A stretch of 64,000 nucleotides of DNA from a virus: positions 1 to 64,000 of the IMG/VR virus record IMGVR_UViG_3300013131_000036; one strand, given 5' to 3'. A program made the position numbers and the translations under genes. This document shows positions 8,212 to 56,547 of the stretch, piece by piece (position 1 is the first letter of the stretch; the number at the start of each line of letters is the position of its first letter). A model generated the notes under the pieces. That model did not search any database, had not been told where the DNA came from, and saw only the letters and a list, made by a program, of their open reading frames with translations.

Positions 8212-8262
8212 CTTGAATATTTACCTTTAAAAACAAACTTTTATATTAAATATTTATAAAAT

Positions 8263-14023: not shown

Positions 14024-14027
14024 TTAT

Positions 14028-16817: not shown

Positions 16818-16846
16818 CAAAAGAATTTAACAATTAAATAATTTAT

Positions 16847-19689: not shown

Positions 19690-19700
19690 TAAATATTTTT

Positions 19701-24736: not shown

Positions 24737-24749
24737 TATGCAATTAATT

Positions 24750-24757
24750 TATAAATA
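24750..24757 (+). promoter_or_regulatory. T4-type late promoter TATAAATA
   Basis: Exact match 5 nt before ATG 24763. Confidence 0.7.
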
Positions 24758-24762
24758 AATAT

Positions 24763-30905: not shown

Positions 30906-30929
30906 CAACAAAAAGAGTAAATATATTAT

Positions 30930-38185: not shown

Positions 38186-38436
38186 CGAATGGTTTTGACA
38201 AGGTTATTAAAAAACTAACAGAAGATTTTAACATTCTTCCCATGGCCAAGGTTCCCAAGACTTTTCAGGGAAAAAGCATTGATTGGGGTAAGACAGGCAC
38301 TCACCCGAGCGGATTCAAAGGAGATACCAGCAATCCCGGCAGCATGCAGCTGGTTTTTGCCATACCCGCCAAAAAGAAAAAGAAGTCAGCGAATGTTCTT
38401 AAAAAACGTGTGGCTGCCAATCGTGTTCGTCGCTAG
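38182..38436 (+). CDS. Hypothetical protein
   Basis: ATGA-coupled to the fibre gene; its 3' end overlaps the convergent hydrolase gene. Confidence 0.45.
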   Translation: MTNGFDKVIKKLTEDFNILPMAKVPKTFQGKSIDWGKTGTHPSGFKGDTSNPGSMQLVFAIPAKKKKKSANVLKKRVAANRVRR

Positions 38437-38919
38437 GGCTTCTTTGTTTTTTCCGCCAAATTGTGGACTGCTCCAATAAGGTTTCACTTTGCTGGGTCCC
38501 TTGGTCACATGATAGTGAGTGGCTCCTCCAGTAAGATCCTCCAGTTTTCCCCGCATGCCCACAATTGCCAGTTCCTTGGCCATGGCCCATCGAGGATGCC
38601 CCATGGCTTTGGTTATAATGTCGCCCATTTTCACTGAACCGGCGTTATAACCATCAAAAAAGCTGAATTGTTTGGGTTTCAACACCACATCCACTGCACC
38701 CCGGAACGGATCCCCACCTTTTACCCTGTTCATGATCACATTCATCACGGCTTGCATGCCTTCATATCCCTCTCCTCCGGCTTCACCGATAAGAGCTGCA
38801 GCAACAATATCGCTGTATTTGATAGCGGCTTCGGCTTTTTGAACCAGGGCCGGAGGTGGCGGAGGCAAATCGGGTGTTACCTCCAACAACAGTTGTTTTA
38901 TTCTATCTTCAAACCTCAC
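38386..38919 (-). CDS. Cell wall hydrolase (SleB / Hydrolase_2 family)
   Basis: IGEAGGEG..GMQAVMNVIMNR, QFSFF, GGATHYH and IGSHTFF motifs. GTG start placed 5 nt after TATAAATA. Confidence 0.88.
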   Translation of the reverse strand: MRFEDRIKQLLLEVTPDLPPPPPALVQKAEAAIKYSDIVAAALIGEAGGEGYEGMQAVMNVIMNRVKGGDPFRGAVDVVLKPKQFSFFDGYNAGSVKMGDIITKAMGHPRWAMAKELAIVGMRGKLEDLTGGATHYHVTKGPSKVKPYWSSPQFGGKNKEALATNTIGSHTFFKNIR

Positions 38920-38920
38920 C

Positions 38921-39400
38921 TTAATATTTATAAACACTGACTGTGACTATTTTGGGGTGATTATATGCAAAATCCAAAGCATCCTTCTTTTTTTCAAAAA
39001 ATATGTCTATAACAGGCAGTTTACCTCCACTTGCCTTCTTTTGCTTAACAGCTGTGCCGGTGTCATGAGCCACCCTGATGCCCAAATTTGGTATGTATAA
39101 ACGCTTATAAAAGGGGATCAGGCGCGGATCGACTGCCACGCTTACCCCTTCACGAAGACGCGTTCCTGACGAGCTTCTTTTACGGGCCGTATCCCTGTCG
39201 GTGTCCCCTCCTTTGGCCCAATATACAGTTAATCTTGCCTTTATTTTCTTTTCAACAACCGTCTTTTTGAGTGTTTTTTGGGCCAAATAATCCAGTTTTT
39301 TGGAAATAATGGAGTCGATTGGATTATCATTAACAGGGGAATCCTGAACCATAATATATAAAAAGATTGAAGCCATGATTAAAATGAAAAATCGGTTCAT
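38921..39400 (-). CDS. 3D-domain lytic transglycosylase-like protein with N-terminal membrane anchor
   Basis: VAVDPRLIP, VAHDTG and IDIFF motifs; hydrophobic N-terminus. Confidence 0.8.
   Translation of the reverse strand: MNRFFILIMASIFLYIMVQDSPVNDNPIDSIISKKLDYLAQKTLKKTVVEKKIKARLTVYWAKGGDTDRDTARKRSSSGTRLREGVSVAVDPRLIPFYKRLYIPNLGIRVAHDTGTAVKQKKASGGKLPVIDIFFEKKKDALDFAYNHPKIVTVSVYKY
38925..38932 (-). promoter_or_regulatory. T4-type late promoter TATAAATA
   Basis: Exact match 5 nt before the GTG of the SleB-like gene. Confidence 0.65.
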
Positions 39401-39996
39401 ATTTGGTCATCCTCCCGTATTGGATAGTAAAAATCTACCTGACGATAGGTATTCTTATGAAAGAAAAGAGGGGATCCAAATTTATCAGATGCTGCATAAA
39501 GTCGTTTGTTTTTCTTAAATAAAACCTCTATATGACCGGGTTTGCGACTGTGTTTTGGTTGATAAACTGCAATCACAATGGTGTTTTCCGGCAATTGCAT
39601 CACTTCTTTTCGACCTATTTTTACAAAATCATGTTTGTTTTCAAATACATTTTTGTAGTTTTTTGCATACAGGATGCCGTTGTTTGAGGTGGTGACCGGA
39701 TAGGTTTGCCGTCCTTGCCGTCCCTGGACCAATCTACCTTCCCGCAAATCCAATTGAGGGAAAGCCCGTTCATTTCGTTCGTGCAGGTTGTCCAACAGGG
39801 CCGTGGTGAACTTGGCACAAAGACCACTGCTGTAATTGCGGGTCAGTTTACTCACATCGACCATGAAAGTTTTGAATTCAGCCGGGGTAAGATTAGGTTT
39901 AACGATGGATTGAGGCAAAACGCATCGGCCAGCTTCAGTGCTGAAGCTGTTTGCTACCCCCAAGACCAAAGCTGCGGCTAATAGTGTTTTTTTCAT
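39397..39996 (-). CDS. Secreted CHAP/NlpC-P60-like amidase
   Basis: Signal peptide MKKTLLAAALVLGVANS; SGLCAKF (Cys), PGHIEV (His) and ASD. Confidence 0.55.
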   Translation of the reverse strand: MKKTLLAAALVLGVANSFSTEAGRCVLPQSIVKPNLTPAEFKTFMVDVSKLTRNYSSGLCAKFTTALLDNLHERNERAFPQLDLREGRLVQGRQGRQTYPVTTSNNGILYAKNYKNVFENKHDFVKIGRKEVMQLPENTIVIAVYQPKHSRKPGHIEVLFKKNKRLYAASDKFGSPLFFHKNTYRQVDFYYPIREDDQI

Positions 39997-40009
39997 GTGG
40001 CTGGACCCG

Positions 40010-40036
40010 ATTATATCAGGGTCAAAAAATTGTAAA
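40010..40036 (-). promoter_or_regulatory. Sigma70-like promoter upstream of the secreted amidase
   Basis: TTTACA-N15-TATAAT with an extended -10 TG. Confidence 0.55.
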
Positions 40037-40097
40037 GAAGATTCTTTACAAAACGTTGTTATTTTTGTTAATAATATTTATCTTTTTGCAAAGATAT

Positions 40098-40679
40098 TCA
40101 AGCTTTACTCAACAAATCTTTTATATATTTTCTCAGATTATTGTTTCTATTCGTCCAACCTTTTTTGAAAACAGCCAACTTAGGACGTTTTTCACACAAA
40201 TTATTATAAAAAGTCTGCCGTTGATCAATAATATCAAAAGCCAGATCTTTCGGATCTTTCTTGGCCATGAGACTGCGAGTATATGGCCCAACAATACCAT
40301 CTGCGGTGGCTCCTACTACACGTTGCAGAAACTTGTTGGCTTGGGTACGACCTGTGTTTACACAACTGTCAAAATAACTGATATAGGCAGGGAACGGAAC
40401 CTGTGGAGCCGCACTTTTGAGCCAGTAATCTTGCCAAAATATCTCATCTGCCTGTTCCCGGGTAAGATTTTTAATGTCCAGCAAAGGATAATCACGTTGA
40501 GTAATCCCCATATTTGTGATTTTTCCAGGATCGTTTGGATGATTATATAATCCCCCTTCAGCTTCCCTGACAAACTTCATCGCAATTTCAAATTCTTTTG
40601 ATTTCTCACTAGGCATTTGATTGATCCTTTTGTTCTTTTTGATATTTAACCACCTCTTCACAAACTTCAATAAATTCAT
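40098..40679 (-). CDS. Endolysin, glycoside hydrolase family 108 (start may be 40616)
   Basis: EGGLYNHPNDPG..TNMGIT, FDSCVNTG, ADGIVGP.T and F.KGW.NR motifs. Confidence 0.9.
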   Translation of the reverse strand: MNLLKFVKRWLNIKKNKRINQMPSEKSKEFEIAMKFVREAEGGLYNHPNDPGKITNMGITQRDYPLLDIKNLTREQADEIFWQDYWLKSAAPQVPFPAYISYFDSCVNTGRTQANKFLQRVVGATADGIVGPYTRSLMAKKDPKDLAFDIIDQRQTFYNNLCEKRPKLAVFKKGWTNRNNNLRKYIKDLLSKA

Positions 40680-41202
40680 TATCGCTCATGCGTTGTTTCA
40701 TGAAATTTATACGACGATCCACCCACTGAACATTTCCTTCTATGTAACCTTTACTGGAATCTATGCGATCTAATGAAGCAGTATTTGTTAAATTTACTCT
40801 ATAAATAGATGGTATTTCAATAAAAATACCACTTATCTTGCATTTAAAATTTTGTTTTTCTAAAAGATTCCAAAGATATTCAATATTCAAATTAAATTCT
40901 AATTTTCTTCTACTAGCATTACTTTTTAATTCTGTATAAAACTGTCTGGGTATTCCTTTATATCCTCGATAAACATGAGATTCTTCACCTTTTATACCTT
41001 TGTTCCAAGTACCAAAATCTTTTCTCAAACATCCACAACTTTTTGTTGTTCCATTTCTTAGTGCACCACCTAAAATATCTTTAATTTTTCCACATGAGCA
41101 TTTACATACCCAGTATTTGTCATGGGCTTTTGATATTTTTTCAGATTTTTTTAAAACAACAAACCTGCCGTAGTGGTTGCCTGTTAAATCAATAAATTTC
41201 AC
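40609..41202 (-). CDS. HNH homing endonuclease-like protein
   Basis: DLTG..YGRFVV...WVCKCSCG...SCGC N-terminus; ASLDRIDSSKGYIEGNVQWV...N nuclease motif. Confidence 0.82.
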   Translation of the reverse strand: MKFIDLTGNHYGRFVVLKKSEKISKAHDKYWVCKCSCGKIKDILGGALRNGTTKSCGCLRKDFGTWNKGIKGEESHVYRGYKGIPRQFYTELKSNASRRKLEFNLNIEYLWNLLEKQNFKCKISGIFIEIPSIYRVNLTNTASLDRIDSSKGYIEGNVQWVDRRINFMKQRMSDNEFIEVCEEVVKYQKEQKDQSNA

Positions 41203-41447
41203 AAATCAAGCCCATTTAAAATCTCTTTGATCTTTTTCAATGCTTCCCGCAGCTTGGTTTCTTTCTCGCCTTCTTCATTTTCACCAATCCGATAGTCGTT
41301 TGGTGTGTAAATGTTTTGGCTGGCCCCACTGTCCCGGTTGATTCCCGGACTTATCTGGCTTGCATCGGGTGCACTCATCTGGCCGGTGTTGCGAATCGTG
41401 CCTTCATAAATCTTTTCCAAATCAATTTGTTTCAGATAATCTTTCAT
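41199..41447 (-). CDS. Hypothetical protein
   Basis: 82 aa; TAAATA 9 nt upstream. Confidence 0.55.
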   Translation of the reverse strand: MKDYLKQIDLEKIYEGTIRNTGQMSAPDASQISPGINRDSGASQNIYTPNDYRIGENEEGEKETKLREALKKIKEILNGLDL

Positions 41448-41644
41448 CAGTTGTAATATTTATCAAAATCCTTGGGCATGACCAGATAATGATTCAGATT
41501 TTTTGCCAACAATTTTACTTTTAGCAAAATCTCCTCCTTCTTATCTTTGTTTTTTTCCCGTTTGTATTTTTCATACATGTCCAAAACAAGATCGGCTGTG
41601 ATCTTTTGGTTCACAATTCCTTCTACCTTTTCAGCTTTGGACAT
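41447..41644 (-). CDS. Hypothetical protein
   Basis: MSKAEKVEG..., 65 aa; TAAATA 5 nt upstream. Confidence 0.55.
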   Translation of the reverse strand: MSKAEKVEGIVNQKITADLVLDMYEKYKREKNKDKKEEILLKVKLLAKNLNHYLVMPKDFDKYYN

Positions 41645-41683
41645 ATAAATATTTAATATATCGTGAATAGCAAAAGAAAAAGA

Positions 41684-41875
41684 ATGCTTTTGGACATAAA
41701 ACGGTTTCCTTTTTATTATAAAATATGTGAAGCTTGCGACAATGTGAATGCAAAAGACAGTGCGTTCTGCATTTTTTGCGGAAATTACCGGTTTGATGAA
41801 AGCATTGTGCAGGTCAGTAAACGAAGCGAAGAAATGTTGACACAAGAAGAGGATCCTTTAAATTTTCTGGAATGA
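41684..41875 (+). CDS. Small zinc-ribbon protein
   Basis: CEAC...CIFC motif. Confidence 0.55.
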   Translation: MLLDIKRFPFYYKICEACDNVNAKDSAFCIFCGNYRFDESIVQVSKRSEEMLTQEEDPLNFLE

Positions 41876-42003
41876 GCAAGGGTAAAACCGCCAAATTAAA
41901 CACCGTTCAGAACGGAAAAGGCGACCGTCCCCGGAGCATAAGCAAGAAGTTTTGGCAAAATTACGATACGATTCGTTGGAGCAAAAAGAAAAAATTAGGG
42001 TAA
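41872..42003 (+). CDS. Small basic protein (not in ORF track)
   Basis: 43 aa, MSKGKTAKLNTVQNGKGDRPRSISKKFWQNYDTIRWSKKKKLG; ATGA-coupled to the previous gene. Confidence 0.5.
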   Translation: MSKGKTAKLNTVQNGKGDRPRSISKKFWQNYDTIRWSKKKKLG

Positions 42004-42654
42004 AATTTGATTGATTTGATGCATTAAATTGATTCGAGTTTGAAAATCGTACCCGGCAAAATGAGCCACGTTGCATTTGCTCCAGCTTTGTTCGTCCCCC
42101 CCGTTCTGTCCCATCAGATTCCATTGTGAACCAAGATTGTGATATTTTATATTATATCGGGCCCGGTTCAGATTCATGATGGTTTGATCCGGGTACCACG
42201 GCATCAGTTTGAAGTATTCCGGATTGCTAAAAATTTTGATTGCATCCGGGCGAAGCAATAAAACACCTCCGTTAAAATAACCCTCCCACGGTTCAATTTC
42301 TGTCAGGGCGGCCGCCGCCTTGATGTATTTGTTCCATTCCGGATTGGGTTGATCATTTTTAGAATCCCATACCGCACTCATGCCTTGTGATGGAGCCAGA
42401 TTGAAAATGTCCGGGGCGTTCCGGTTGATGAGGGCGTCCGTGTCCAGATAAAAAATGCCCTCGGAATAGTTTGGAAGATGGCGTTCCATGAAAAATTTGC
42501 TCATGGCAATGAAATCAAACGGGGGTAGTCGTTTTTTGATCACAATCAAACGGGCTCCCACCTTTTTTGCATAATCCTCCATCCGGGGAATACTTATGTT
42601 TCCCATAATTTCGCCTTCCCCATCAATCATGGTGGTGATTACGGCTCGATTCAT
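41995..42654 (-). CDS. Glycosyltransferase family 8-like
   Basis: FYLDTD, YFNGGVLL, DQTIMN, WN and AHFAG motifs. Confidence 0.85.
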   Translation of the reverse strand: MNRAVITTMIDGEGEIMGNISIPRMEDYAKKVGARLIVIKKRLPPFDFIAMSKFFMERHLPNYSEGIFYLDTDALINRNAPDIFNLAPSQGMSAVWDSKNDQPNPEWNKYIKAAAALTEIEPWEGYFNGGVLLLRPDAIKIFSNPEYFKLMPWYPDQTIMNLNRARYNIKYHNLGSQWNLMGQNGGDEQSWSKCNVAHFAGYDFQTRINLMHQINQILP

Positions 42655-42655
42655 A

Positions 42656-43312
42656 TTAAAAAGTTTTCACGCAACGGTCCACATGCGAATAACCACTGCA
42701 ATGTTTGGTAAATATTTGTTTGCTGCATCCTGTTTTCATTCGGGCAACCTTGGTGATCCAAAGATCATAAGCATCCCACGCACAGGTTTTGAATTTGAAT
42801 TGAACTTGTTTTAGTTTTTCCCGGGGTATCAGGTAAGACTGGGCCGGTATGAAAAAATGCACCCCCAGAATATAATCTTCCATTTCAGTATCAAACGTGT
42901 ATCCCGTTCCCTGATTGTTTCCCAGATTAAACAAATCCAGATCATGATTCTTTGTTATTTTATAAAAATGTTCCAACTTATTGTAAAAATCTTCAAAATC
43001 ATGGTTTATGATGGCATCTTCAAATATTAATATAAAATCATAATTGATGTTATCCTCCAAGCTTATGCCGTTTTTATGGGCCAGAAAACAACCGTAGTGA
43101 CCCGGGGAAAGATTGCCGTTACCCGGTTGCATGCTCACACTGTTTGGTCGGTTGCAGTTTTCCATGGGCGGAAGATTTTTATATATTTCGTTGATGGTTT
43201 GTTTGTATTCCACCGGATATTTGCTGCAAAAAGTCTTCAGATTATGCACAGATTCTTTTTCTTTGCGATCATTCTCAGGATCCGTGACCAGATGCACTAT
43301 TCTGCAATTCAC
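42656..43312 (-). CDS. Glycosyltransferase family 25-like
   Basis: LSPGHYGCFLAH, ILIFEDA and SYLI motifs. Confidence 0.65.
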   Translation of the reverse strand: MNCRIVHLVTDPENDRKEKESVHNLKTFCSKYPVEYKQTINEIYKNLPPMENCNRPNSVSMQPGNGNLSPGHYGCFLAHKNGISLEDNINYDFILIFEDAIINHDFEDFYNKLEHFYKITKNHDLDLFNLGNNQGTGYTFDTEMEDYILGVHFFIPAQSYLIPREKLKQVQFKFKTCAWDAYDLWITKVARMKTGCSKQIFTKHCSGYSHVDRCVKTF

Positions 43313-44247
43313 AGTATTTTGTCCAGATGTTCCGTGAATTGTTCCAGTTTATACTCCCCACATTCCAGTGTTCCCGTCCAGCAATCATCAAACCGATAAT
43401 TGAAAAGATGCCAGTCCGTGTAACAGAAACGGCATTTCTCTTTGCCCACAGTTACCGGATACATGTTCCATCCCAGTTTACCGTTTCGCACAAACATGCG
43501 ATAATCCGGATTCACATAGGTATAGGCACAAATGATGGGGATGTTGGTGAGTCCTGCCAGATGAATGGGTCCCCCATCATAACCCACAAGGCATTTTGAT
43601 TGCTGAAAAATGCCGATCAAGTCATTCAAGTTTGTTTTGTCAATCAAGTTCACACAGGTGGTGATGTCCCGCACATCCAACACCTTGGCTTCATCCCCTT
43701 GTTTATAGGCAACCAACGGGCTGTTCGGATCAAACGGTTCTTTGCTTGTGCCAATCAACACCGGAATATGATCCCGTTCCACAATGTGTTCGGTGAGTTT
43801 TCTTAAAAGTTCTTTGTTCCATTTTCTAACCGGGGAACGAAATCCAACGGATATGATCACGGATCGACTGAAATCCACATTGTATTTGTTCACATCAATA
43901 TTTTTTGGATACAACGGATAATTATAATCCTCATCCCGCAAAACCTTGTTGATCAGATTATAGCTGGCCACTTTGCTCAGATTGCTTTTGGGCACATCCG
44001 GAACACCGTGGGGAAATATGCGAACATGCCGGTATTCCTCTTTGAATTCATATCTTTCAAAAATGCTGTTGAACCGATTGTCGGGAACAAACCATAAAAT
44101 ATCTCGGTACGCCGGAACCGTGCTGACCAGATATTTGCCGTCCTTGTGAAAGTTTTCAATTGCATATTTGACCACGGGACTTGCAGCGATCACATCTCCC
44201 AATCCTCCGTTCAATATGTAATGAGTGGGCGTGGCAGGATAATGCAT
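43309..44247 (-). CDS. Glycosyltransferase family 9 (heptosyltransferase-like)
   Basis: GGLGDVIAASP, RKW, NLIDKTNL.DL and LVGYDGGPIHLAG motifs. Confidence 0.85.
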   Translation of the reverse strand: MHYPATPTHYILNGGLGDVIAASPVVKYAIENFHKDGKYLVSTVPAYRDILWFVPDNRFNSIFERYEFKEEYRHVRIFPHGVPDVPKSNLSKVASYNLINKVLRDEDYNYPLYPKNIDVNKYNVDFSRSVIISVGFRSPVRKWNKELLRKLTEHIVERDHIPVLIGTSKEPFDPNSPLVAYKQGDEAKVLDVRDITTCVNLIDKTNLNDLIGIFQQSKCLVGYDGGPIHLAGLTNIPIICAYTYVNPDYRMFVRNGKLGWNMYPVTVGKEKCRFCYTDWHLFNYRFDDCWTGTLECGEYKLEQFTEHLDKIL

Positions 44248-44254
44248 AACCTAG

Positions 44255-44275
44255 TTTACCAAATAATTTGGTAAA
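44255..44275. repeat. Perfect inverted repeat between FkbM and GT9
   Basis: tttaccaaat-a-atttggtaaa. Confidence 0.75.
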
Positions 44276-44821
44276 TCAAGCCTTGTGCTGCGTCAGAACC
44301 CGACGCGAACCATTTTGATCAAAATAACTTTCCATCACAAATGGTATGTTGCGTATCAGTCCTTTTGCAAGCTGTTCCGTGTTTTCCTTTTCATAATCTT
44401 TATGCCATTCAATATAAAGCTCATTTATTTTTTTAATATTTGCGTGTTTCAGCATTTTTGGAACAATATTGTATTCGCTGCCTTCAACATCAATTCGCAT
44501 AATGCAAAAATCAAAACCGTCCAACCTGTTCAATATATTATCAATATCTTCGGTTTGTACAGTATATCCCTGCTTTGTTTCATTATATATTATGTTTCCG
44601 TGTTGTTCATCCGGATAAAAAATTGCTTCTCCTTCCTTGTCAGAAACCGCTTTGTTTACAATTTCAGCAGATGGATATTTTGTTTTTAATATTTCTGGAC
44701 ACTGTTTGTTTGGTTCATAAAGCAAAAGGTGATATTCCTTGTCTATGCGTTTGCTGTCAAAAAAAGCATCAGTACTGTCCCCTTTGTATGCACCCAGACT
44801 GATAAAAATCTTTTTCAACAA
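44276..44821 (-). CDS. FkbM-family methyltransferase
   Basis: SLGAYKG, YEPN, NKAVSD, RIDVEGSEY and LYIEWH motifs. Confidence 0.85.
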   Translation of the reverse strand: MLKKIFISLGAYKGDSTDAFFDSKRIDKEYHLLLYEPNKQCPEILKTKYPSAEIVNKAVSDKEGEAIFYPDEQHGNIIYNETKQGYTVQTEDIDNILNRLDGFDFCIMRIDVEGSEYNIVPKMLKHANIKKINELYIEWHKDYEKENTEQLAKGLIRNIPFVMESYFDQNGSRRVLTQHKA

Positions 44822-44851
44822 AAGAATTTATGGATTTTTTTTATAAAACAA

Positions 44852-46219
44852 TCAGTATTTATTTAAATGAGGACCCGTGGTTGCGGCCGGGGAAAAATCA
44901 ACATTGTGTGCCACTTTAAGCGCACGTGCTATGGTAACTTCTTGTGGAACACAATACACATCTCCATTGTTCAAAAGAACACAGCTTTGATATTTGTCGG
45001 CAGCCACGCCAAAAGCACCAGAAGGTGTTGACATGCTATCCGTCAATGGATCATATATTTTTGCATTATTCGCATTTTGCGGACATAAAAATATGCGTCC
45101 GTCCGGCAGCAAACATCCGGTGCTGTATGGTCCCTCTATTCCGGGAAATCCCCCGTTGGGTGTTGTTAATTGGTCGGTGTAAGGATTGTATATTGTGGCC
45201 ACGGATCCACCGTCCGGTACGCAAAATACGCGACCATCCGCCATCAAAACACCTCCGGTTCCATAATTTGAACCTGCTCCGGCGGGAAATGTTCCGGCCG
45301 GTGTTGTGATTTGATTTGTGAACGGATTGTAAATTCTTGACCGGGACGCACTATGAGGAACCATATAGATGCGACCATCCAACAAGGTCACACATCCGTC
45401 ATAAGCGGGTTGTGTTTCCGCATGTGTTTGAGAAAGTGAAGTGACCGTATCTGTTACTGGATCATATATCCGGAACGTTGTTGAACTGAAAGGAGCCAAA
45501 AACACGCGGCCATCCGGTAAAAGAGCACAGCTTTCAGTTGTGCCACCACCTCCGCTTATGGTTGTTGTTGCGAAAATTGTGTCTTTGACCACATCATGAA
45601 TTCTTCCGGCCGTGTTTAGAAATGGACTGCAGAACACACGACCATCCGGAAGCAAACAACCTCCAAAAAAAGCAAAGCCTCCCGGATAAGCCGGAGACAA
45701 CACGGACAAAGTATTTGTTCGAGGATCATATACCCGTGCAACTGTTGCACCCGCTGGAACACAAAACACCCGACCATCCGGAAGCAACACACCTCCCACA
45801 TAACTGTTTCCAGCTGCCGGAAATGTTCCACCGGGGGTGTATAAAACTTCTGCTCCGGTGACAGGTTTATTCAAACTTGTAACATATTGAAAATGTTGAA
45901 AACATTGGGCACTTAAACTGATTTGCTGGCTTGTTCGGGCGCTGAATCCCCCCACAATTGTGGTTCTGTTTTCACCATAAAGCATTTTTCCGGTCTGGCC
46001 AATGTGCCATTGCGGACAAACCAACTGGGAAAATTGGGCGGTGGTGCCGCTTTGATTCAGCGTTACTCCGCTGCCTGCAATGAAATTTGTGTTTCCCGAA
46101 GGCAAAAGATTAATGTTTTGAAAATTAGGGGTTGATTCCGGACCGGTACTGACCAGAAATTGTTCCGGGGTGGTGGTATCCAGTGTTCCCAAAAGTGCCA
46201 GATTTACGTTTTTGCTCAT
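44852..46219 (-). CDS. Putative fibre/receptor-binding protein, 7-bladed beta-propeller (paralog 3)
   Basis: Seven GGxLLPDGRVFCxP..ARIYDP repeats (kelch/galactose-oxidase-like). Confidence 0.65.
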   Translation of the reverse strand: MSKNVNLALLGTLDTTTPEQFLVSTGPESTPNFQNINLLPSGNTNFIAGSGVTLNQSGTTAQFSQLVCPQWHIGQTGKMLYGENRTTIVGGFSARTSQQISLSAQCFQHFQYVTSLNKPVTGAEVLYTPGGTFPAAGNSYVGGVLLPDGRVFCVPAGATVARVYDPRTNTLSVLSPAYPGGFAFFGGCLLPDGRVFCSPFLNTAGRIHDVVKDTIFATTTISGGGGTTESCALLPDGRVFLAPFSSTTFRIYDPVTDTVTSLSQTHAETQPAYDGCVTLLDGRIYMVPHSASRSRIYNPFTNQITTPAGTFPAGAGSNYGTGGVLMADGRVFCVPDGGSVATIYNPYTDQLTTPNGGFPGIEGPYSTGCLLPDGRIFLCPQNANNAKIYDPLTDSMSTPSGAFGVAADKYQSCVLLNNGDVYCVPQEVTIARALKVAHNVDFSPAATTGPHLNKY

Positions 46220-46222
46220 AAG

Positions 46223-47557
46223 TTAATTTTTGTTGAAATGTGGTCCGGTTAGTGCTGCCAAAGAAAAATTGGCATTTGTATATATGTAGTGTCTTCGGGC
46301 TTCTGTGGAATAGTGTGGCACACTAAACACACTTCCATCCGGAAGGAGCACACAACTCAAAGAGCCGTTAAAATTATAAAAAGTCCCGGCCGGTGTTGAT
46401 AATGTATCGGTTCGGGGATCATATATTCTGGCAACAGAACTGTAACCAGGATTGCAATAGATTCGTCCGTCCGGAAGCAAACAACCTCCGTCGTGAGAGG
46501 TTGCTCCCGGATATGTTCCGCTCGGGGTAGATATTGTATCAGTGACAGGATCGTAAATGATGGCAATTGTTGCAGTGTAAGGAACATTAAATATCCGTCC
46601 ATCCGCCATCAATACGGTCCCTATCCAGCTTCCAGATGCATATGTTCCGTTTGGAGTTGTTGTAATATCCTTATACGGATCATATATTTTTGCAATTGTA
46701 CCATTAGACGTGGGACCACAATACACACGACCATCCAACATTAATGTCGCCCGGTAAGTTTTTTGACCTCCTCCATATGCTCCCCCGGCTGTTGTGAGAG
46801 TATCAGTTGTGGGATCATAAATGACAGCAACAGAACTGTTTTCTGGTGAACAAAAAACACGTCCGTCCGGAAGCAAACAACCTCCGGCAAATGCAGCAAA
46901 ACCGGATGGCCAACTAACACTGGGAATTGTGACAGTGTCTTTGGCCGGATCATAAATACTGGGACCGCCTGAATCAGGAATGCAAAACACTCGGCCATCC
47001 GCCATGAGAACTCCCCCTTCTGATTGGGTAGGAGAACCTGAAGGAGTTGTGTAAACATTTTTAACCGGATCATATATGACTGCAAACGCTTTATTAAAAA
47101 CACAGCAATATACCCGGCCATCCGCCATGAGAACTCCTGCCCCAAAAGATTGGTTTCCGCCTACTGCTCCCGGAGGTGTGGTGAGTATTTCCGCCCCGGT
47201 CATGGGCACTGTTTGACTGACCACAAATTGAAGATGCGCCAGAAATTGAGCGCTCAATGCAACCTGTTGGCTGACACGATTGGCTGATGTTTCTTGAGCA
47301 AGAGGTTTTCCTGTTTTCCCCACTGTCCAATTGGGACATGTGTTCAGGTTAAAAGTGACTGTATTTGCGTTAACATCTCGGACCGTGTTGAAACCGCTGC
47401 TGCTCAGATTTTCAAACGTTGTGGCTGTTGGTTGCGGTCCGCCCGCTCTTGTTGCAGAAAATACTGGACTGAGTGTGGAGCCGCGTGTGCGCAAAGCATA
47501 ATATGCTTGTTCAAAACTGGATACACCAAATAATGCGGTTACACTTGCCCTGCTCAT
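46223..47557 (-). CDS. Putative fibre/receptor-binding protein, 7-bladed beta-propeller (paralog 2)
   Basis: Same seven repeats; TAAATA 7 nt upstream. Confidence 0.65.
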   Translation of the reverse strand: MSRASVTALFGVSSFEQAYYALRTRGSTLSPVFSATRAGGPQPTATTFENLSSSGFNTVRDVNANTVTFNLNTCPNWTVGKTGKPLAQETSANRVSQQVALSAQFLAHLQFVVSQTVPMTGAEILTTPPGAVGGNQSFGAGVLMADGRVYCCVFNKAFAVIYDPVKNVYTTPSGSPTQSEGGVLMADGRVFCIPDSGGPSIYDPAKDTVTIPSVSWPSGFAAFAGGCLLPDGRVFCSPENSSVAVIYDPTTDTLTTAGGAYGGGQKTYRATLMLDGRVYCGPTSNGTIAKIYDPYKDITTTPNGTYASGSWIGTVLMADGRIFNVPYTATIAIIYDPVTDTISTPSGTYPGATSHDGGCLLPDGRIYCNPGYSSVARIYDPRTDTLSTPAGTFYNFNGSLSCVLLPDGSVFSVPHYSTEARRHYIYTNANFSLAALTGPHFNKN

Positions 47558-47599
47558 GTATTATTATTTATTAAAAAACCACCAGCGTTGCTGATGTTT

Positions 47600-47941
47600 T
47601 TAAGCGGGTTTCGTGGGCCAAACAACTTCGAAGGGACTATTAAAATTCTGGGGCAAGTTGCGAAGAGCATTGCGATAATCCAACCAAGCCTGCTTATTTA
47701 CCGTGCAATCAGGGATTTGCGTCCAATCAGTTTCAGAAAGCAGTTTGTTGCGTTCCTCCCGTATCCGTTTCCAAACAATAGGAGAACCATCCAATATATT
47801 AAATCTTTCTTCAAAATTCACGTTGTCACGATCCGGACGATTCATCGATGATAAAGGTTTAGGAAAACGGGCAGCAACGGCACCTTCAGCGTCTATATAT
47901 TCGTAACAATTGCCCACGTCGTAAATGTCGATTTTGTCCAT
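47600..47941 (-). CDS. Tail fibre assembly chaperone
   Basis: WKRIREERNKLLSETDWTQIPD...W.DYR.ALRNLPQ...VWPTKP motif. Confidence 0.85.
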   Translation of the reverse strand: MDKIDIYDVGNCYEYIDAEGAVAARFPKPLSSMNRPDRDNVNFEERFNILDGSPIVWKRIREERNKLLSETDWTQIPDCTVNKQAWLDYRNALRNLPQNFNSPFEVVWPTKPA

Positions 47942-47946
47942 AATAG

Positions 47947-47954
47947 TATTTATA
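47947..47954 (-). promoter_or_regulatory. T4-type late promoter TATAAATA
   Basis: Exact match 5 nt before the chaperone ATG. Confidence 0.7.
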
Positions 47955-47962
47955 TTTATATA

Positions 47963-49327
47963 TTATAATTTATTATAAAAGGGTCCATTTATCAATGCTG
48001 GTGAAAAATTAGGTCCTGTATATGATATTTTTGCAATTACTGCCCGAGTAGACCAACCAGGAACCATGAAAACATTTCCGTTTTGCATAAGTACTGCTCC
48101 TATAAACCCATTATATCCTGCCAATGTCCATACAGTACCAGTTGGTGTTGTTGTGGTGTTTGATATTGGATCATATACCCGGGCAGTTCCCCCTCCGGTT
48201 GGTCCGGCCGGAGCGCAAAACACCCGTCCGTCCGGCAAAAGACATCCTCCTGTATAATCTTTTCCTTGCATATTCGGGGTGGTTATAATATTCGTTGTTG
48301 GATTGTATATCAATGCTTGGCCTACAACTGATTCGTCAGGAACACAAAACACCCGACCATCCGGCATTAAAACACAACTTTCAAATCCACTAGGAGGAAT
48401 ATAGGTTCCAAGAGGAGTTGTTAAGGTATCGTTAAAAGGACTGTAAATGACAAATGTGGCGTTAGGAACAGCTTCAGGAGCCATAAAAACACGACCATCC
48501 AGTAGCAAAGTGGCACCAAAACGTGATCCCTCTGGATCAGCATTATATGTTCCGCTTGGGGTTGTTAAATCATTGTTGACTGGATCGTATATACGAGCCG
48601 TTGCAAACTGTCTAGGCACACAAAACACCCGACCGTCAGAAAGCAAAACACCTCCTGCATATTTCGCAGCACCTGCTGGAAACGTTCCGGCCGGTGTTGA
48701 CAACGTGTTTGTGGCCGGATCATATATTCTAGCTATTGTTATGTTTTGAGGAACACAATACACCCGGCCATTCGGAAGCAAAATTGCTCCAGAGTGATCG
48801 GAAGAACCACCATATGTTCCACTTGGAGTGATTAATGTGTCTGTGACAGGATCATATATTCTGGCTACTGTACTGCCCATGGGAACACAAAACACCCGAC
48901 CGTCAAGAAGCAAAACACCTCCTTGATGGGCATCAGAAGTTCCCGGATATGCACCGGTGGGTGTGGTTAGCACATCCATTCCGGTAAGAGGAAGATTTTG
49001 AGCAACAACGTATTGAATATGTCTTTGAAATTGACCGCTAAGAGCAACCTGTTGGCTGACGCGATTGGCTGCTGTTTCTTGATAAAGAAACTTACCGGTT
49101 TTTCCCGTTTTCCAATCCGGACACTGCAATAAATTTACTTTGACACTTGTATTGCTTGCCCCCACTTCAATAACGGTTCCACTACCTGCAAGAAAATTGG
49201 TGTTAACGTCACTGATGGGTATTGCTGAAAAAACCGGAGTGGTGGTGTTGCCTGTGGACGTTAATATTTGCCCGGATTGACCAAAATCGGGCAGAGCAAT
49301 GTTTGCAAGGTTGGATGCATTACTCAC
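47963..49327 (-). CDS. Putative fibre/receptor-binding protein, 7-bladed beta-propeller (paralog 1)
   Basis: Same seven repeats; fibre-like N-terminus GQSGQILTSTG...P.F. Confidence 0.65.
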   Translation of the reverse strand: MSNASNLANIALPDFGQSGQILTSTGNTTTPVFSAIPISDVNTNFLAGSGTVIEVGASNTSVKVNLLQCPDWKTGKTGKFLYQETAANRVSQQVALSGQFQRHIQYVVAQNLPLTGMDVLTTPTGAYPGTSDAHQGGVLLLDGRVFCVPMGSTVARIYDPVTDTLITPSGTYGGSSDHSGAILLPNGRVYCVPQNITIARIYDPATNTLSTPAGTFPAGAAKYAGGVLLSDGRVFCVPRQFATARIYDPVNNDLTTPSGTYNADPEGSRFGATLLLDGRVFMAPEAVPNATFVIYSPFNDTLTTPLGTYIPPSGFESCVLMPDGRVFCVPDESVVGQALIYNPTTNIITTPNMQGKDYTGGCLLPDGRVFCAPAGPTGGGTARVYDPISNTTTTPTGTVWTLAGYNGFIGAVLMQNGNVFMVPGWSTRAVIAKISYTGPNFSPALINGPFYNKL

Positions 49328-49336
49328 AACAAACTG

Positions 49337-49522
49337 TTATTTTTTCTCTTCCACACTGACAATACCGCGCAGAAAGAGTGTTCCCGAAGCAGGATCAATC
49401 CATTGTGCTTCTTTCATGATATTCTTGCCCACCTGACGTTCCACAATGACCGGTTTGGTCATCTGACCAGAAATGGGGCTGACTTGGGGTTTGGGCTGAA
49501 CAAATGGTACGTTTTTGATCAT
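49337..49522 (-). CDS. Hypothetical late protein
   Basis: 61 aa; TATAAATA 5 nt upstream. Confidence 0.6.
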   Translation of the reverse strand: MIKNVPFVQPKPQVSPISGQMTKPVIVERQVGKNIMKEAQWIDPASGTLFLRGIVSVEEKK

Positions 49523-49527
49523 ATTAT

Positions 49528-49535
49528 TATTTATA
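49528..49535 (-). promoter_or_regulatory. T4-type late promoter TATAAATA
   Basis: Exact match 5 nt before ATG 49522. Confidence 0.7.
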
Positions 49536-49536
49536 A

Positions 49537-49812
49537 TTATTTTGCTTTTTTATACTGCATTTCGCAAACTTTAAACACCTTGCCGGGAAGATTTTGTATA
49601 AAATCTATTATTTTACAATTAATTCCCATATCAATTTTTTCAAAAGGAGCATTCCGCTTAATCATATTAGGAAGAGATAGGAAGTCATAATCTTTTTCAT
49701 TTTTGTTGATCAATACCCAGAATTCTCCCCCATATTTGCCTTTGGTTATGGCAAAAAAATCCCCCCGTTTGTACGTTTTAAGCTTGATCAGCTTGAATAT
49801 TTTTGACAGCAT
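49537..49812 (-). CDS. Hypothetical protein
   Basis: MLSKIF..., fills the gap in the - strand operon. Confidence 0.5.
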   Translation of the reverse strand: MLSKIFKLIKLKTYKRGDFFAITKGKYGGEFWVLINKNEKDYDFLSLPNMIKRNAPFEKIDMGINCKIIDFIQNLPGKVFKVCEMQYKKAK

Positions 49813-50668
49813 TGGCAAACCCCCGGATATTTTCATTAAGATCCTCGATCACATATTTTGGTTTGTATCCAAGACTTTCAATTTTTTGACAAGAAAGCAT
49901 GCAATTACTACGATTAACTCGGAAATTCATTTCATCATAACCCAATATTTTCCAGTTTTTATTTTCCAGACCATGCTCTTTCAAAAGCTGGATCACATCC
50001 TGTCCACGGACCACACCGTTGTTGACCACATTGTAAACGCCCGGTTCCGGTTTTTGTTCCAGATTAATGAAAAAATCCGTGAATTCGTTCAATAGATTCA
50101 GGCTGGTGATGCTGTTTTTCAGACTGATCAGATTGTCATATTTCAAAAGTTTATAAAGATAATTTTTGGTTGTGTAACTTTCATCATAAGGAATGCGAAT
50201 GCGGAATGTGTAGCACGGATAATCTTCCAGTTTTTCCTCGCAAAGATGTTTAGTTTTACTGTAAAAACTGCTGCGATTGCTGAATATACCAAAATTAGGC
50301 ATGTCATATTCGCTGTAAATTTTGTCCTGATGATCATAAATGCAACCACTGCCAATGTTGATGAAAGGCACATCCAATTCTTTGCATACTTTGGCAATGC
50401 GAACCGGAACCAAAACATTCCAAAAATAACAATCTTGCCAATTGGTTTCACAACCTTCCACGTTGGGTGAACCGGTATAGCCTGCCGCACTGATCAAATA
50501 ATCTGGTTTTCCCTTTTTCAGGTATTCCCGAAGTTTTTCTGGTTGGGTATAATCCAAAAATTCCCGGCGAACCATGTCCACGGTTTTTACATGTCCCAAA
50601 CTTTTCAGTTTGGCCGACATGCTTTTTCCCACAAATCCCCCTCCCAGGATCAGCGCATTGTTAATCAT
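49778..50668 (-). CDS. NDP-4-keto-6-deoxyhexose epimerase/reductase (RmlD / NRS-ER-like SDR)
   Basis: ILGGGFVG, AAGYTGSPNVEGCE, GSGCIY and SFYSKTK (YxxxK) motifs. Confidence 0.82.
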   Translation of the reverse strand: MINNALILGGGFVGKSMSAKLKSLGHVKTVDMVRREFLDYTQPEKLREYLKKGKPDYLISAAGYTGSPNVEGCETNWQDCYFWNVLVPVRIAKVCKELDVPFINIGSGCIYDHQDKIYSEYDMPNFGIFSNRSSFYSKTKHLCEEKLEDYPCYTFRIRIPYDESYTTKNYLYKLLKYDNLISLKNSITSLNLLNEFTDFFINLEQKPEPGVYNVVNNGVVRGQDVIQLLKEHGLENKNWKILGYDEMNFRVNRSNCMLSCQKIESLGYKPKYVIEDLNENIRGFANAVKNIQADQA

Positions 50669-51023
50669 CGTTGCTTTTTGGTTTAATATTGTTTTGGGAT
50701 TGGTAAAAGAACCGGTTAATGGCCGCGCTCAAAGCATCGGCATCTTTTTGGTCTTTAGCATGAATAAAATTGATTTGGCTGTTAAGCATGTCATAGCCAA
50801 TGATAATGAAACAATCCAGATATTCGCTGATGATGCTGTCCAAGTGTGAAATGTCAGTGGCCCGTTCATTTTTCAGTTCCAGTTTTTGTTGCAGATAATT
50901 GTGCAACGTGCTTTTAATCAGATTCTCCATGTTTTCCGGACGAACCGAAGCTTCAGGTTTTTTACCAGAAAGAGGATTAGATGCTGTTGACTGTTTGTTG
51001 CTCTTCTTGCGCGGACTTTTCAC
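50661..51023 (-). CDS. Hypothetical protein
   Basis: 120 aa; GTG start 6 nt after TAAATA. Confidence 0.6.
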   Translation of the reverse strand: MKSPRKKSNKQSTASNPLSGKKPEASVRPENMENLIKSTLHNYLQQKLELKNERATDISHLDSIISEYLDCFIIIGYDMLNSQINFIHAKDQKDADALSAAINRFFYQSQNNIKPKSNDD

Positions 51024-51381
51024 TGATAGTATTTACCGGTTTTTTGAAAAATCTACTATTCTTTGCATTATTACCAATACCTTTTTCGAGCAACAATAAT
51101 ATGACACTTTCAATGCTGTCGGTTCTGAGACTGAAGTTTTTTACAAACCGAATGCCCCCGTCATTGATTTCAAACATGATGTCTCCGTTAAAGTCTTTGT
51201 TTTGATAACAGGTGATGAACGTGCTGCTGTTACAAGGATCCACAATGATGGTCCACAAACGAGTGTCCACCTTTGCATATTGCTGGAAAACTTTCCACAC
51301 GATAAAGCCATTATCGCGAAGACGTTTGATGAAATAGCTGGGAGTACGAACCTTGTTTTTGCTGATGCGTTTTTTATTCAT
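50977..51381 (-). CDS. Hypothetical protein
   Basis: MNKKRISKNK..., ATGA-coupled to the clamp gene. Confidence 0.6.
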   Translation of the reverse strand: MNKKRISKNKVRTPSYFIKRLRDNGFIVWKVFQQYAKVDTRLWTIIVDPCNSSTFITCYQNKDFNGDIMFEINDGGIRFVKNFSLRTDSIESVILLLLEKGIGNNAKNSRFFKKPVNTISEKSAQEEQQTVNSI

Positions 51382-55186: not shown

Positions 55187-56547
55187 TCCATAAGATCGTT
55201 AAGACTGTTTTCTGTGCTGGAAACGGCATCTGTGGAATCTGTTTTCACTTCTTCCCGGATTTGCATGGTGGAATAATCTATCGCAAAAGAAGCAGTTCCA
55301 AAAACCGGACCCTGTCGGTTCTTTTGAATTCCTATGTTGATTCTTCCCAGTTCTTCATCCTCTTTTTCCCGCCAAATGCTGAACATACAATCTGCTGTCA
55401 TGGCCAATCCCATACTTTCACTGGTGGTTTCTAATCCGGGATTGCTTTGATTAAAGGCATTTCGGTTCAATTGAGTGGCGGTAATGACCGGAACATTGAA
55501 CACGTAACTGACAGAACGCAGCTGTTCTGTTATGTGTTTGATTCTTTCATAGGAATTGTTTCCAAATGATGTTGTGAAAAGATTCACATAATCCACAACA
55601 ATCACGTCTGGTTTGATTCCAGTCTGGACCAGTTTCTTCACATAACCAATAAGATTTCCGATAGTGATTGTGCTGGGGGGAAATTCCTTGATGATCAGTT
55701 TAGCCTTGGGATTTTCCCGCACATATTTGGATATGGCATCCCTTAAATCGTCCAATTTGTGTCTGAGCGAAAAAATTGGGATATTGGAGAAATTACCGCA
55801 AAGACGTTTGGCATACATGATTTCACTCATTTCCAGACTGACCAACAAAACTGTTTTTCCCTGAGAACATATGTTGCTGGCCAGATTACCCAGAACAATA
55901 CTTTTACCCACATTGGTTTGACCGCTGAAAACATACAATGCTTTTCCTTCTTGTAGGAATCCACCCCCAAGTTTTTCATCTATCCACTTGTATCCGCTGG
56001 AAATGTAATTTTCCACCTTGTTCAATTCAGTGGCCACCTTTTCAATGTGATTGAAATATTCCAATCCCAGGTCGTTGGTAAGACTGATGCTGCATGCTTC
56101 CTGTGTTTTTTCCAACAATTCGGATGCATCAATATTGTTCTTTTCGCTCATTTCAAGTGCCTGCATCATCACGTTGAAAATTGCTTTTTCTCTTAAAAAT
56201 ATCTCAGTGTTTTGAAAAAGCTCCTTTTCATTCAGGTTTTTGTCCAGTTTTGAAATTTCTTCCACAACATTTTTGAAAGAAATCTTAAGTTTATCATTTA
56301 CCAGATAGTTTTTTATCTCTGTTACAGTCGGAGGTGCATTGTGTTTTTCATGAAAATCCGTGATGATTTGCACAATATTCCGGATGTTTTCATTTTTAAA
56401 ATACTCCGGTTTCAAATATTGGGAAACTGTTCCCAGATATGAAGCGTCGGCCAGACACTTATAAATGATAAGTGGCTCGAATGTGTCCGCGTCGATTTTG
56501 TTTACTTTGACCATTTTTGCAGAAACCATTGTTGACCTTTTTGCCAA
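55183..56547 (-). CDS. gp41: Replicative helicase gp41 (DnaB family)
   Basis: GQTNVGKS, SLEMSE, IKEFPP, VVDYVNL, TATQLNR, SESMG and KNR motifs. Confidence 0.93.
   Translation of the reverse strand: MAKRSTMVSAKMVKVNKIDADTFEPLIIYKCLADASYLGTVSQYLKPEYFKNENIRNIVQIITDFHEKHNAPPTVTEIKNYLVNDKLKISFKNVVEEISKLDKNLNEKELFQNTEIFLREKAIFNVMMQALEMSEKNNIDASELLEKTQEACSISLTNDLGLEYFNHIEKVATELNKVENYISSGYKWIDEKLGGGFLQEGKALYVFSGQTNVGKSIVLGNLASNICSQGKTVLLVSLEMSEIMYAKRLCGNFSNIPIFSLRHKLDDLRDAISKYVRENPKAKLIIKEFPPSTITIGNLIGYVKKLVQTGIKPDVIVVDYVNLFTTSFGNNSYERIKHITEQLRSVSYVFNVPVITATQLNRNAFNQSNPGLETTSESMGLAMTADCMFSIWREKEDEELGRINIGIQKNRQGPVFGTASFAIDYSTMQIREEVKTDSTDAVSSTENSLNDLME

Follow-up and report, generated by a model that had tools for sequence, protein, structure and literature searches.

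A cassette of glycosyltransferase and methyltransferase genes beside the propeller tail-fibre genes of an uncultured T4-like phage: a candidate system for fibre glycosylation

To our knowledge, glycosylation of the phage particle has been shown for only a few actinobacteriophages. In these phages it alters recognition by antibodies, and glycosyltransferases encoded by the mycobacteriophage Che8 and its relatives reportedly decorate virion proteins (Freeman et al. 2023, cited in PMC12801897). In giant viruses, such as the chlorovirus PBCV-1 with its protein Vp54 and Mimivirus with its fibrils, viral cytoplasmic glycosyltransferases, sugar-nucleotide enzymes, and methyltransferases build methylated, 6-deoxyhexose-containing virion glycans. 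The bacterial autotransporter heptosyltransferases (BAHTs), represented by the TibC-TibA and AAH-AIDA-I pairs, are soluble GT-B enzymes of the GT9 fold that are encoded beside the gene of a repeat-built adhesin. Here, a cassette of one methyltransferase and three glycosyltransferase genes is described that directly follows genes for propeller-tipped tail fibres in a stretch of 64,000 nucleotides (nt), hereafter the window (positions 1-64,000 of the linear 78.7 kb IMG/VR contig IMGVR_UViG_3300013131_000036; CheckV completeness estimate 37%). Its source is an uncultured freshwater phage, a distant T4-like myovirus. The interpretation favoured here is that the cassette, expressed late and acting in the cytoplasm, would glycosylate the propeller fibres and possibly other virion proteins too. 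This is the best of the readings considered, held at what we would call a little under an even chance; remodelling of the host lipopolysaccharide (LPS) is a serious rival, and the acceptor cannot be named from sequence.

The genes of the region, in the order in which they would be transcribed, are as follows.

50661-51023, minus strand, GTG start: orf120 (50661..51035 with its TAAATA motif), overlapping the reductase start by 8 nt
49778-50668, minus strand: RmlD-type NAD(P)-dependent 4-ketoreductase/epimerase of the short-chain dehydrogenase/reductase (SDR) family (Pfam RmlD_sub_bind E 4.8e-14, Epimerase 1.2e-12)
49337..49533, minus strand, TAAATA included: orf61, a small basic protein heading the fibre 1 unit, 100% identical in the sister strain introduced below
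47963-49327, minus strand: fibre 1, a conserved N-terminal part plus a seven-bladed Kelch-type propeller
47600-47941, minus strand (to 47958 with a doubled TAAATA): tail-fibre assembly chaperone (Phage_tail_APC E 2.9e-18, phrog_4912 1.4e-18)
47580-47596, minus strand: terminator-like hairpin plus T run after the chaperone gene
46223-47557, minus strand (to 47570 with TAAATA): fibre 2, likely the head of a fibre 2-fibre 3-FkbM-GT9-GT25-GT8 unit
44852-46219, minus strand: fibre 3, whose last codons contain TAAATAAATA (44865-44856)
44276-44821, minus strand, TTG start as called: FkbM-family S-adenosylmethionine (SAM)-dependent methyltransferase (Pfam 7e-8, TIGR01444 7e-12, phrog_8156 2e-11)
43309-44247, minus strand: GT9-family GT-B glycosyltransferase with a C-terminal Cys cluster (Pfam GT9 1.3e-6)
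42656-43312, minus strand: GT25-like small GT-A glycosyltransferase (Pfam GT25 8e-4), its start overlapping the GT9 stop by 4 nt
41995-42654, minus strand: GT8-family small GT-A glycosyltransferase (Pfam GT8 2.7e-5, phrog_28746)

A preliminary description of this DNA had named a rhamnose-type reductase, three propeller fibres, their chaperone, and FkbM, GT9, GT25-like, and GT8 genes; all of these are recovered on the minus strand by family searches, with the GT25 match falling below its cut-off. That description had also spoken of glycosylation genes interleaved with the fibre genes. In fact the glycosyltransferase genes come after the fibre genes, and the reductase alone is upstream of them. 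No Pfam, PHROG, or NCBIfam match was obtained for orf120, which is 97% identical in the sister strain.

The association of propeller, GT9, and methyltransferase genes recurs elsewhere. Three distant GT9s that lack the cysteines of the window enzyme (L109, L110, and L112) each adjoin genes for RCC1-type propellers, and in another locus (L075) a GT9 gene lies amid three propeller genes, in the order propeller-GT9-propeller-propeller. A profile of these four GT9s (A5) found 59 viral loci; 36 of them have a propeller gene on the strand of the GT9 gene and no more than 300 nt away from it. When the loci are dereplicated by GT9 identity, the pair is present in 31 of 50 clusters at 90%, 24 of 40 at 70%, and 7 of 14 at 50%. 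The propeller gene is upstream of the GT9 gene in 33 loci, frequently overlapping its start, and usually there are one to three propeller genes in tandem. Upstream of the pair lie DUF2612 genes (12 cases), T4 gp9/10-like genes (3 cases), or tail genes, while the gene directly downstream encodes an MT24-like (Methyltransf_24) methyltransferase at 11 loci, an FkbM enzyme at 7, and a rhamnosyl O-methyltransferase of the CmcI type at 1; beyond the methyltransferase come NlpC/P60, GH108, and peptidoglycan (PG)-binding lysins. The carriers extend from 36 kb genomes with terminal repeats up to phages of 97-211 kb, with differing baseplate genes, and four contigs of metagenome-assembled genomes have the same propeller-GT9 arrangement. 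Otherwise RCC1 genes are lacking: there are none in the ~3 Mb of the 26 records that carry the GT9 clade of the window enzyme. Taken together, baseplate genes, one to three propeller fibre genes, GT9, O-methyltransferase, and lysis genes, in this order, form a module that recurs among uncultured phages. The gene order of the window is the same, but its GT9 belongs to a different subfamily and two extra glycosyltransferases are present. A functional link between enzymes and fibres had been proposed in the preliminary description, with synteny across related genomes as a check; the arrangement of fibre, GT9, and methyltransferase genes recurs in dozens of unrelated uncultured phages, and its frequency in the loci of another GT9 clade lends that link strong and independent backing.

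Neither GT9 clade is represented among 50,697 GenBank phage records, where megablast of the region and tblastn with three proteins (fibre 3 and the GT9s of the window and of L109) gave no match, and no publication describing a propeller-GT9-methyltransferase module was found. A GT9 homologue at 65% identity (P0124) and two fibre homologues (P0048 and P0073) all have a longest contig of 6924 bases, a shared value that hints at a further linked case. Within the A5 clade, the propeller gene comes after the GT9 gene, not before it, in L160 and L161, and some of the GT9s in L160, L161, L164-L169, L173, and L112 are ~500-540 amino acids (aa) long, with an N-terminal extension of ~200 aa for which no family was identified.

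The three fibres are paralogous proteins of ~450 aa, 31-48% identical among themselves. In an AlphaFold model of fibre 2 (m6a8a39fe15d0; 22-sequence alignment), the N-terminal 75 residues are poorly defined, a helix is predicted at 91-115, and residues ~124-428 form a seven-bladed propeller with a model confidence (pLDDT) >90. Profile and structure searches assign this propeller to the Kelch/galactose-oxidase type, with other seven-bladed propellers. The top predicted viral structure for it is a "collagen triple helix repeat" protein of the giant virus Hokovirus (E 9e-25, 25% identity), and the propeller family of the window is also present in Leptospira genomes (P0012, P0024, and P0029).

A sister strain is available as two contigs of another sample (L010 and L011/L012), which overlap inside FkbM and have the same gene order. 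Its four cassette enzymes and the flanking genes are 95-100% identical to those of the window at the protein level, with fibre 3 at 97%. Matters are different for fibres 1 and 2: identity is 72% in the N-terminal part of fibre 1 and 38% in its propeller, and 93% and 46%, respectively, in fibre 2. Three other lake runs (X3-X5) agree with the sister strain in that the cassette is kept, at 95-100% protein identity, and the propellers of fibres 1 and 2 are exchanged; a contig of run X4 spans GT8 to fibre 3 (41198-46010), and a second contig takes in the reductase, the chaperone, and the N-terminal part of fibre 2, with both propellers left uncovered. When IMG/VR was scanned with the single proteins fibre 2, GT9, and GT8, only the sister strain was recovered, and a GT8 profile added nothing. 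Since the N-termini are conserved while the propellers swap between strains, the propeller proteins behave as receptor-binding fibres. The chaperone among them points the same way, as do homologues found by a propeller-family profile search at 76 viral loci, where the neighbours are Baseplate_J or other baseplate genes, tail genes, and lectin genes; homologous chaperones follow propeller genes in other loci as well.

Of the cassette enzymes, the GT9 protein offers the closest comparison with a described system. It scores above the gathering threshold of Pfam PF01075 (28.4 bits vs. 22), and its model (pLDDT 80.8) has a GT-B fold. The best fold matches, by Foldseek and VIA-align, are 3tov (Z 22.4), WaaF (21.1), TibC (20.6), and WaaC (20.0), with the next unrelated fold at 12.6. 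Because Z for TibC is similar to that for WaaC and WaaF, the fold does not distinguish LPS enzymes from protein heptosyltransferases. In sequence, the scores against the LPS heptosyltransferase equivalogs lie far below their cut-offs (23.3 bits vs. 134.6 for TIGR02195, 18 vs. 185.3 for TIGR02193, and 24.1 vs. 569 for PRK10916), and likeness to LPS enzymes is limited to the donor-binding C-lobe (residues 138-250). The acceptor-binding N-lobe is unlike WaaC and WaaF apart from an invariant GD, which we take to correspond to the catalytic-base motif of WaaC. Both this catalytic-type GD and a D-x-G-P-x-H-L-A motif are invariant in the alignment of the small clade (A3) to which the window enzyme belongs. 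The clade also has four invariant C-terminal cysteines, C272, C275, C289, and C296 (CxxC-X13-C-X6-C), which are retained in sets of 13 and 18 sequences and lie between the last strand of the C-lobe and the C-terminal helix, in a region modelled at pLDDT <50.

TibC has an iron finger, formed by Cys339/342/358/370 (CxxC-X15-C-X11-C), that contacts its adhesin substrate (PMC4358343). Like the BAHTs, the window GT9 is a soluble GT-B enzyme encoded beside the gene of a repeat-built adhesin; 274 of its 312 residues align to TibC 91-387, and its insertion with the CxxC...C...C pattern precedes the C-terminal helix, where TibC has the iron finger. Unlike the BAHTs, its putative substrate is the beta-propeller of a phage fibre rather than a beta-helix autotransporter, and additional glycosyltransferases and a methyltransferase accompany it. 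By this analogy, the window GT9 may work like a BAHT, though it is not filed as one. Fusions of GT9 with a methyltransferase were looked for, and none was found.

The remaining enzymes are assigned with differing confidence. In the reductase, the Rossmann GGGFVG and the YSKTK (Y136-x3-K140) motifs are intact, and the match to the RmlD equivalog TIGR01214 has an E of 1.9e-19 but only 69.8 bits, well below the cut-off of 224. Consequently, it is best described as an RmlD-like SDR without a fixed sugar product; it probably makes a 6-deoxyhexose nucleotide sugar. FkbM exceeds both of its cut-offs (33.2 bits vs. 22.7 for PF05050 and 46 vs. 37.7 for TIGR01444), and GT8 scores exactly at that of Pfam PF01501 (24.3 bits vs. 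24.3), has D71-T-D73 (DTD) and HFAG motifs, and falls in virus clusters of the ESM Atlas in which 57-65% of the members carry GT8. For the GT25-like gene, the Pfam PF01755 score is below the cut-off (19.8 bits vs. 24), and support comes from a GT25-type GCFLAH motif and from its place in virus-only ESM Atlas clusters, one of them with GT25 on 52% of its members; thus, only the label "GT25-like" is justified. No hydrophobic segment was detected in any cassette enzyme (the maximal 19-residue Kyte-Doolittle mean is 1.17), and these enzymes are accordingly predicted to be soluble and cytoplasmic. In this respect they differ from Gtr-type seroconversion systems, which are defined by the integral-membrane proteins GtrA/GtrB/GtrC.

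The expression signals also connect the enzymes with the fibres. TAAATA motifs, which the preliminary description had placed at 51030, 49528, 47947, and 47565, are present on the minus strand at 51035-51030, 49533-49528, 47952-47947 (doubled with 47958-47953), and 47570-47565. In each case 5-7 nt separate the motif from the start of the gene that follows (orf120, orf61, the chaperone gene, and fibre 2, respectively). In the window as a whole, TAAATA occurs within 30 nt upstream of 16 of the 64 genes, whereas 0.9 are expected (binomial p 4e-16), and the distance to the start codon is 5-11 nt in 15 of these 16. In the block on the plus strand, 9 of the 10 genes that it precedes belong to the structural module, where the motif marks the first genes of structural units. 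A gp55-type late sigma is encoded on the same contig, ~2.3 kb past the window end (L009:3026-4567, minus strand; phrog_234 E 8.8e-20), and for this reason a T4-type late promoter is the natural reading of TAAATA. Thus, both features of a T4-type late unit are found, enrichment of a TATAAATA-type motif before structural genes and a late sigma gp55 encoded by the phage. The open reading frame (ORF) of the late sigma is 513 aa long, with the family match confined to residues 424-499.

On the minus strand of the region, the hairpin at 47596-47580 is the only convincing intergenic terminator-like candidate, and no terminator-like site was found over the stretch between the fibre 2 motif (47570-47565) and 41995, GT8 included. 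Furthermore, the gaps between fibre 3, FkbM, GT9, GT25-like, and GT8 are 30, 28, -4, and 1 nt. It is therefore likely that fibre 2, fibre 3, FkbM, GT9, GT25, and GT8 form a single transcription unit starting from the TAAATA at 47570-47565. Together with the lysis genes that follow, these observations bear out the late-type context that had been claimed for the region. A perfect match to TAAATAAATA, 35-44 nt before FkbM, had been overlooked; however, its role as a promoter is doubtful because the Asn-Lys codons there are conserved in the fibre family. As a separate observation, operon-leading genes with TAAATA 5-11 nt before the start have no Shine-Dalgarno sequence (examples of TAAATA near the start are 367-378, 8247-8262, 16835-16846, 24752-24762, 30918-30929, and 47565-47557), whereas internal genes (3380 and 28764) have GGAG-type sites. 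Given this short distance between motif and start codon and the missing Shine-Dalgarno sequences, late mRNAs may be leaderless or nearly so.

These results can be accommodated in the following model of fibre glycosylation, which is conjectural as to the acceptor, the sugar donors, the sequence of reactions, and any biological effect. Late in infection, the promoter before fibre 2 would give one transcript carrying fibre 2, fibre 3, FkbM, GT9, GT25-like, and GT8. The RmlD-type reductase, expressed from its own late motif, would divert host dTDP- or GDP-4-keto-6-deoxyhexose into a 6-deoxy sugar donor. The soluble GT9 would then add a first sugar, a heptose or hexosamine from a host nucleotide sugar, to Ser/Thr residues of newly made propeller proteins, much as TibC and AAH heptosylate the adhesins encoded next to them. 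The two small GT-A enzymes would lengthen the glycan and FkbM would O-methylate it, although a methyl-capped oligosaccharide built sequentially is suggested by the family names of the enzymes. On the free virion, the glycan might affect fibre stability, receptor binding, or masking. Favouring such a model are the pairing of GT9 and methyltransferase genes, often overlapping, with a receptor-binding class of proteins, the shared expression signals, and the solubility of the enzymes; the precedent of GT9-adhesin gene pairs and the constancy of the cassette against changing propeller specificity also speak for it. A broader form of the model, which is possible but should be held slightly more loosely, is that in many uncultured phages of Gram-negative hosts a GT9, usually with an O-methyltransferase, is encoded directly behind propeller receptor-binding proteins and O-glycosylates them in the cytoplasm, before assembly. 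It would then be a phage counterpart of TibC and AAH, and the window would represent a longer version in which four enzymes make a methylated oligosaccharide on propeller fibres that can be exchanged.

Several findings weigh against fibre glycosylation. The late timing of the cassette is a motif-based proposal, made by analogy with T4. Glycosyltransferases are not a general companion of the propeller fibre family: among 136 dereplicated neighbours across ~70 other propeller loci there are one GT9 and one TAGT, and a GT9 gene adjoins the fibre in just one locus. Since most phages with such fibres have no adjacent glycosyltransferase, the propeller fold does not need glycosylation. In addition, the A3 clade of the window GT9 is found in 26 other viral loci (including L088-L108 and L113-L116), many of them from phages of 170-360 kb, with no propellers nearby; the neighbours are class-I methyltransferases (about ten), RNase H, AAA, RNA ligase, and polymerase genes. 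The likeness to the BAHTs is also incomplete. The window GT9 has no N-terminal beta-barrel (TibC residues 1-97) and is 312 aa long vs. 406, and a profile of the Cys-cluster segment gave no TibC match at E up to 10, so that the defining features of a BAHT are either absent, as is the barrel, or unproven, as is the four-Cys cluster. Finally, extension of the core of lipooligosaccharide (LOS) or LPS is classically carried out by just this combination of GT9, GT25, and GT8, and adjacency of receptor-binding and receptor-modifying genes is expected if host LPS is the target as well. In that case, the soluble glycosyltransferases would act on nascent lipid A-core or lipid-linked glycan at the inner face of the cytoplasmic membrane, and a methyl-capped heptose-hexose-hexose branch would mask or alter the fibre receptor, so that superinfection is blocked or progeny are not lost on debris. 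We judge such remodelling of the host envelope less likely than fibre glycosylation, though a serious rival to it. The llp gene of T5, for receptor blocking, adjoins the gene of pb5, for receptor binding, and a link of this kind would explain the conserved fibre linkage. Furthermore, the same three CAZy families occur together in LOS/LPS core sets (WaaC/WaaF for GT9; Lic2A/LgtB/LpsA for GT25; LgtC/RfaI/RfaJ for GT8), the donor-binding motifs are kept, and the best NCBIfam names are RfaF, heptosyltransferase I/II, and LPS 3-alpha-galactosyltransferase. Genes of this kind in aquatic T4-like phages have usually been read in this way (PMC12801897). Unlike the core sets, however, the cassette encodes proteins of 218-312 aa from phage-specific families, lies in a late fibre/lysis module rather than a waa/lgt locus, and has NCBIfam scores far under every LPS equivalog cut-off, and the N-lobe of its GT9, where the acceptor would bind, shares no sequence likeness with WaaC/WaaF. 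With late-type promoters and lysis genes as neighbours, LPS made at that stage would presumably renew just a small part of the outer membrane before the cell lyses. Moreover, the cassette has stayed 98-100% identical while two of three receptor-binding propellers were exchanged, and across very different phages the linkage tracks a fibre fold, the propeller.

The two other explanations considered are less probable. According to one, the enzymes add sugars to hydroxymethylated bases of the phage DNA and methylate them before packaging. The preliminary description had noted that none of the enzymes is a T4-type DNA glucosyltransferase. It is true that no T4 DNA alpha- or beta-glucosyltransferase family is among the Pfam or PHROG matches, but taken by itself this is a weak argument against DNA: LPS- and teichoic-acid-related phage glycosyltransferases glycosylate 5-hydroxymethylcytosine DNA, including with heptose, and some of their clusters lie near structural genes (bioRxiv 10.1101/2023.12.21.572611). 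The A3 GT9s of jumbo phages, among replication-type genes and methyltransferases, would suit such a role too. Nevertheless, DNA as the target is very improbable here. No ThyA/dCMP-hydroxymethylase or TET/JBP family was found on the 78.7 kb contig, which is 37% complete and for which the TET control was silent, and the ThyA/dCMP-hydroxymethylase family is present in 0 of 11 viral genomes (at least 90% complete) that carry the propeller-GT9 pair, a result that disfavours hydroxymethyl-base DNA as the target of the propeller-GT9 module. In addition, the cassette is placed late, beside fibre and lysis genes, and two other glycosyltransferase-like genes within the replication module (including 61999-63219) are better candidates for acting on DNA. 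According to the other explanation, there is no functional link at all; the cassette would be a mobile accessory island in a plastic fibre-lysis region, with a host polysaccharide, a small molecule, or another protein of the phage or the host as its target. Regions adjacent to tail fibres are hot spots for accessory genes, as the HNH insertion just downstream, absent from the sister strain, illustrates, and small glycosyltransferases of the GT8-like and GT25-like kinds form large virus-only families found in many contexts. We nonetheless regard this as improbable because the order propeller-GT9-methyltransferase, often with overlapping genes, recurs in phages whose sizes span 36 to 211 kb and whose baseplate genes differ, which makes chance insertion hard to uphold.

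Glycosylation of the fibres, the reading preferred here, would resemble the reported mycobacteriophage systems in that phage-encoded glycosyltransferases act on virion proteins. It would differ from them in several ways: the phage is a T4-like myovirus with a probably Gram-negative host, the glycosyltransferase families are of the LPS type, the candidate targets are tail fibres rather than the capsid or tail tube, and the enzymes are tightly linked to the genes of their substrates. With the giant viruses the cassette shares logic but not homology, since giant viruses infect eukaryotes and use other enzymes on other substrates. If the receptor-binding fibres of phages of Gram-negative hosts are indeed glycosylated by the phages' own enzymes, host-range prediction and fibre engineering must account for the glycan, the reach of GT9 protein glycosylation would extend past bacterial autotransporters, and the "LPS genes" of aquatic T4-like phages, so far an unexplained class, would be accounted for. 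Propeller, GT9, and methyltransferase make up a simple two- or three-gene system that is open to test.

The setting of the cluster is that of a T4-like genome. The gp23-type capsid protein is ~33% identical to its cyanomyophage counterparts; the minus strand also encodes gp43 polymerase, UvsX, gp41 helicase, gp32, and a weak gp59-like loader; and near-identical DNA is present in lake-water metagenomes from several studies. The cluster lies between the gp32/gp59-like replication genes and the lysis genes. On the T4 map, 32-59-33-dsbA-rnh-34-35-36-37-38-t, the equivalent place is occupied by genes 34-38 and t, and the order gp59-like/gp32, small ORFs, fibres and chaperone, lysis resembles that from 32 to t. 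Like the long-tail-fibre module of T4 (34-38, t), the cluster combines this position with TATAAATA-type late promoters, a fibre chaperone, and conserved N-termini with exchangeable distal parts; unlike it, three short (~450 aa) propeller-tipped proteins replace gp34-37, and the T4 module is without enzymes. Downstream of the cassette, outside the proposed pathway, lie an HNH gene and a lysis block of four ORFs (38386..40679, minus strand).

40609-41202, minus strand: HNH/endonuclease VII-type gene between the glycosyltransferase cassette and the endolysin (phrog_3322 E 5e-28)
40098-40679, minus strand: GH108+PG_binding_3 endolysin
39397-39996, minus strand: uncharacterised ORF in the lysis block
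38921-39400, minus strand: 3D-domain protein
38386-38937, minus strand: SleB-like hydrolase

The HNH gene is probably a mobile insertion since it is missing from the sister strain and the contigs of three other lake runs end at 41198. Two further genes on the minus strand are distinct from the late cassette: one for a glycosyltransferase of 406 aa (61999-63219), which adjoins the DNA polymerase gene (phrog_7162 E 2.8e-20, with a weak GT4 match), and one for a protein of 235 aa between uvsX and gp41 (56502-57209), for which no family match was obtained. Lastly, seven large structural proteins (window 10580-25386, plus strand) contain the tripeptide L-S-[A/G/S] 34 times, whereas ~8 occurrences are expected from composition; neither the capsid protein nor the propeller fibres nor the replication proteins share this 3-5 fold enrichment. 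As a glycosylation "sequon" the tripeptide is not counted as evidence, having been picked post hoc and not being enriched in the fibres.

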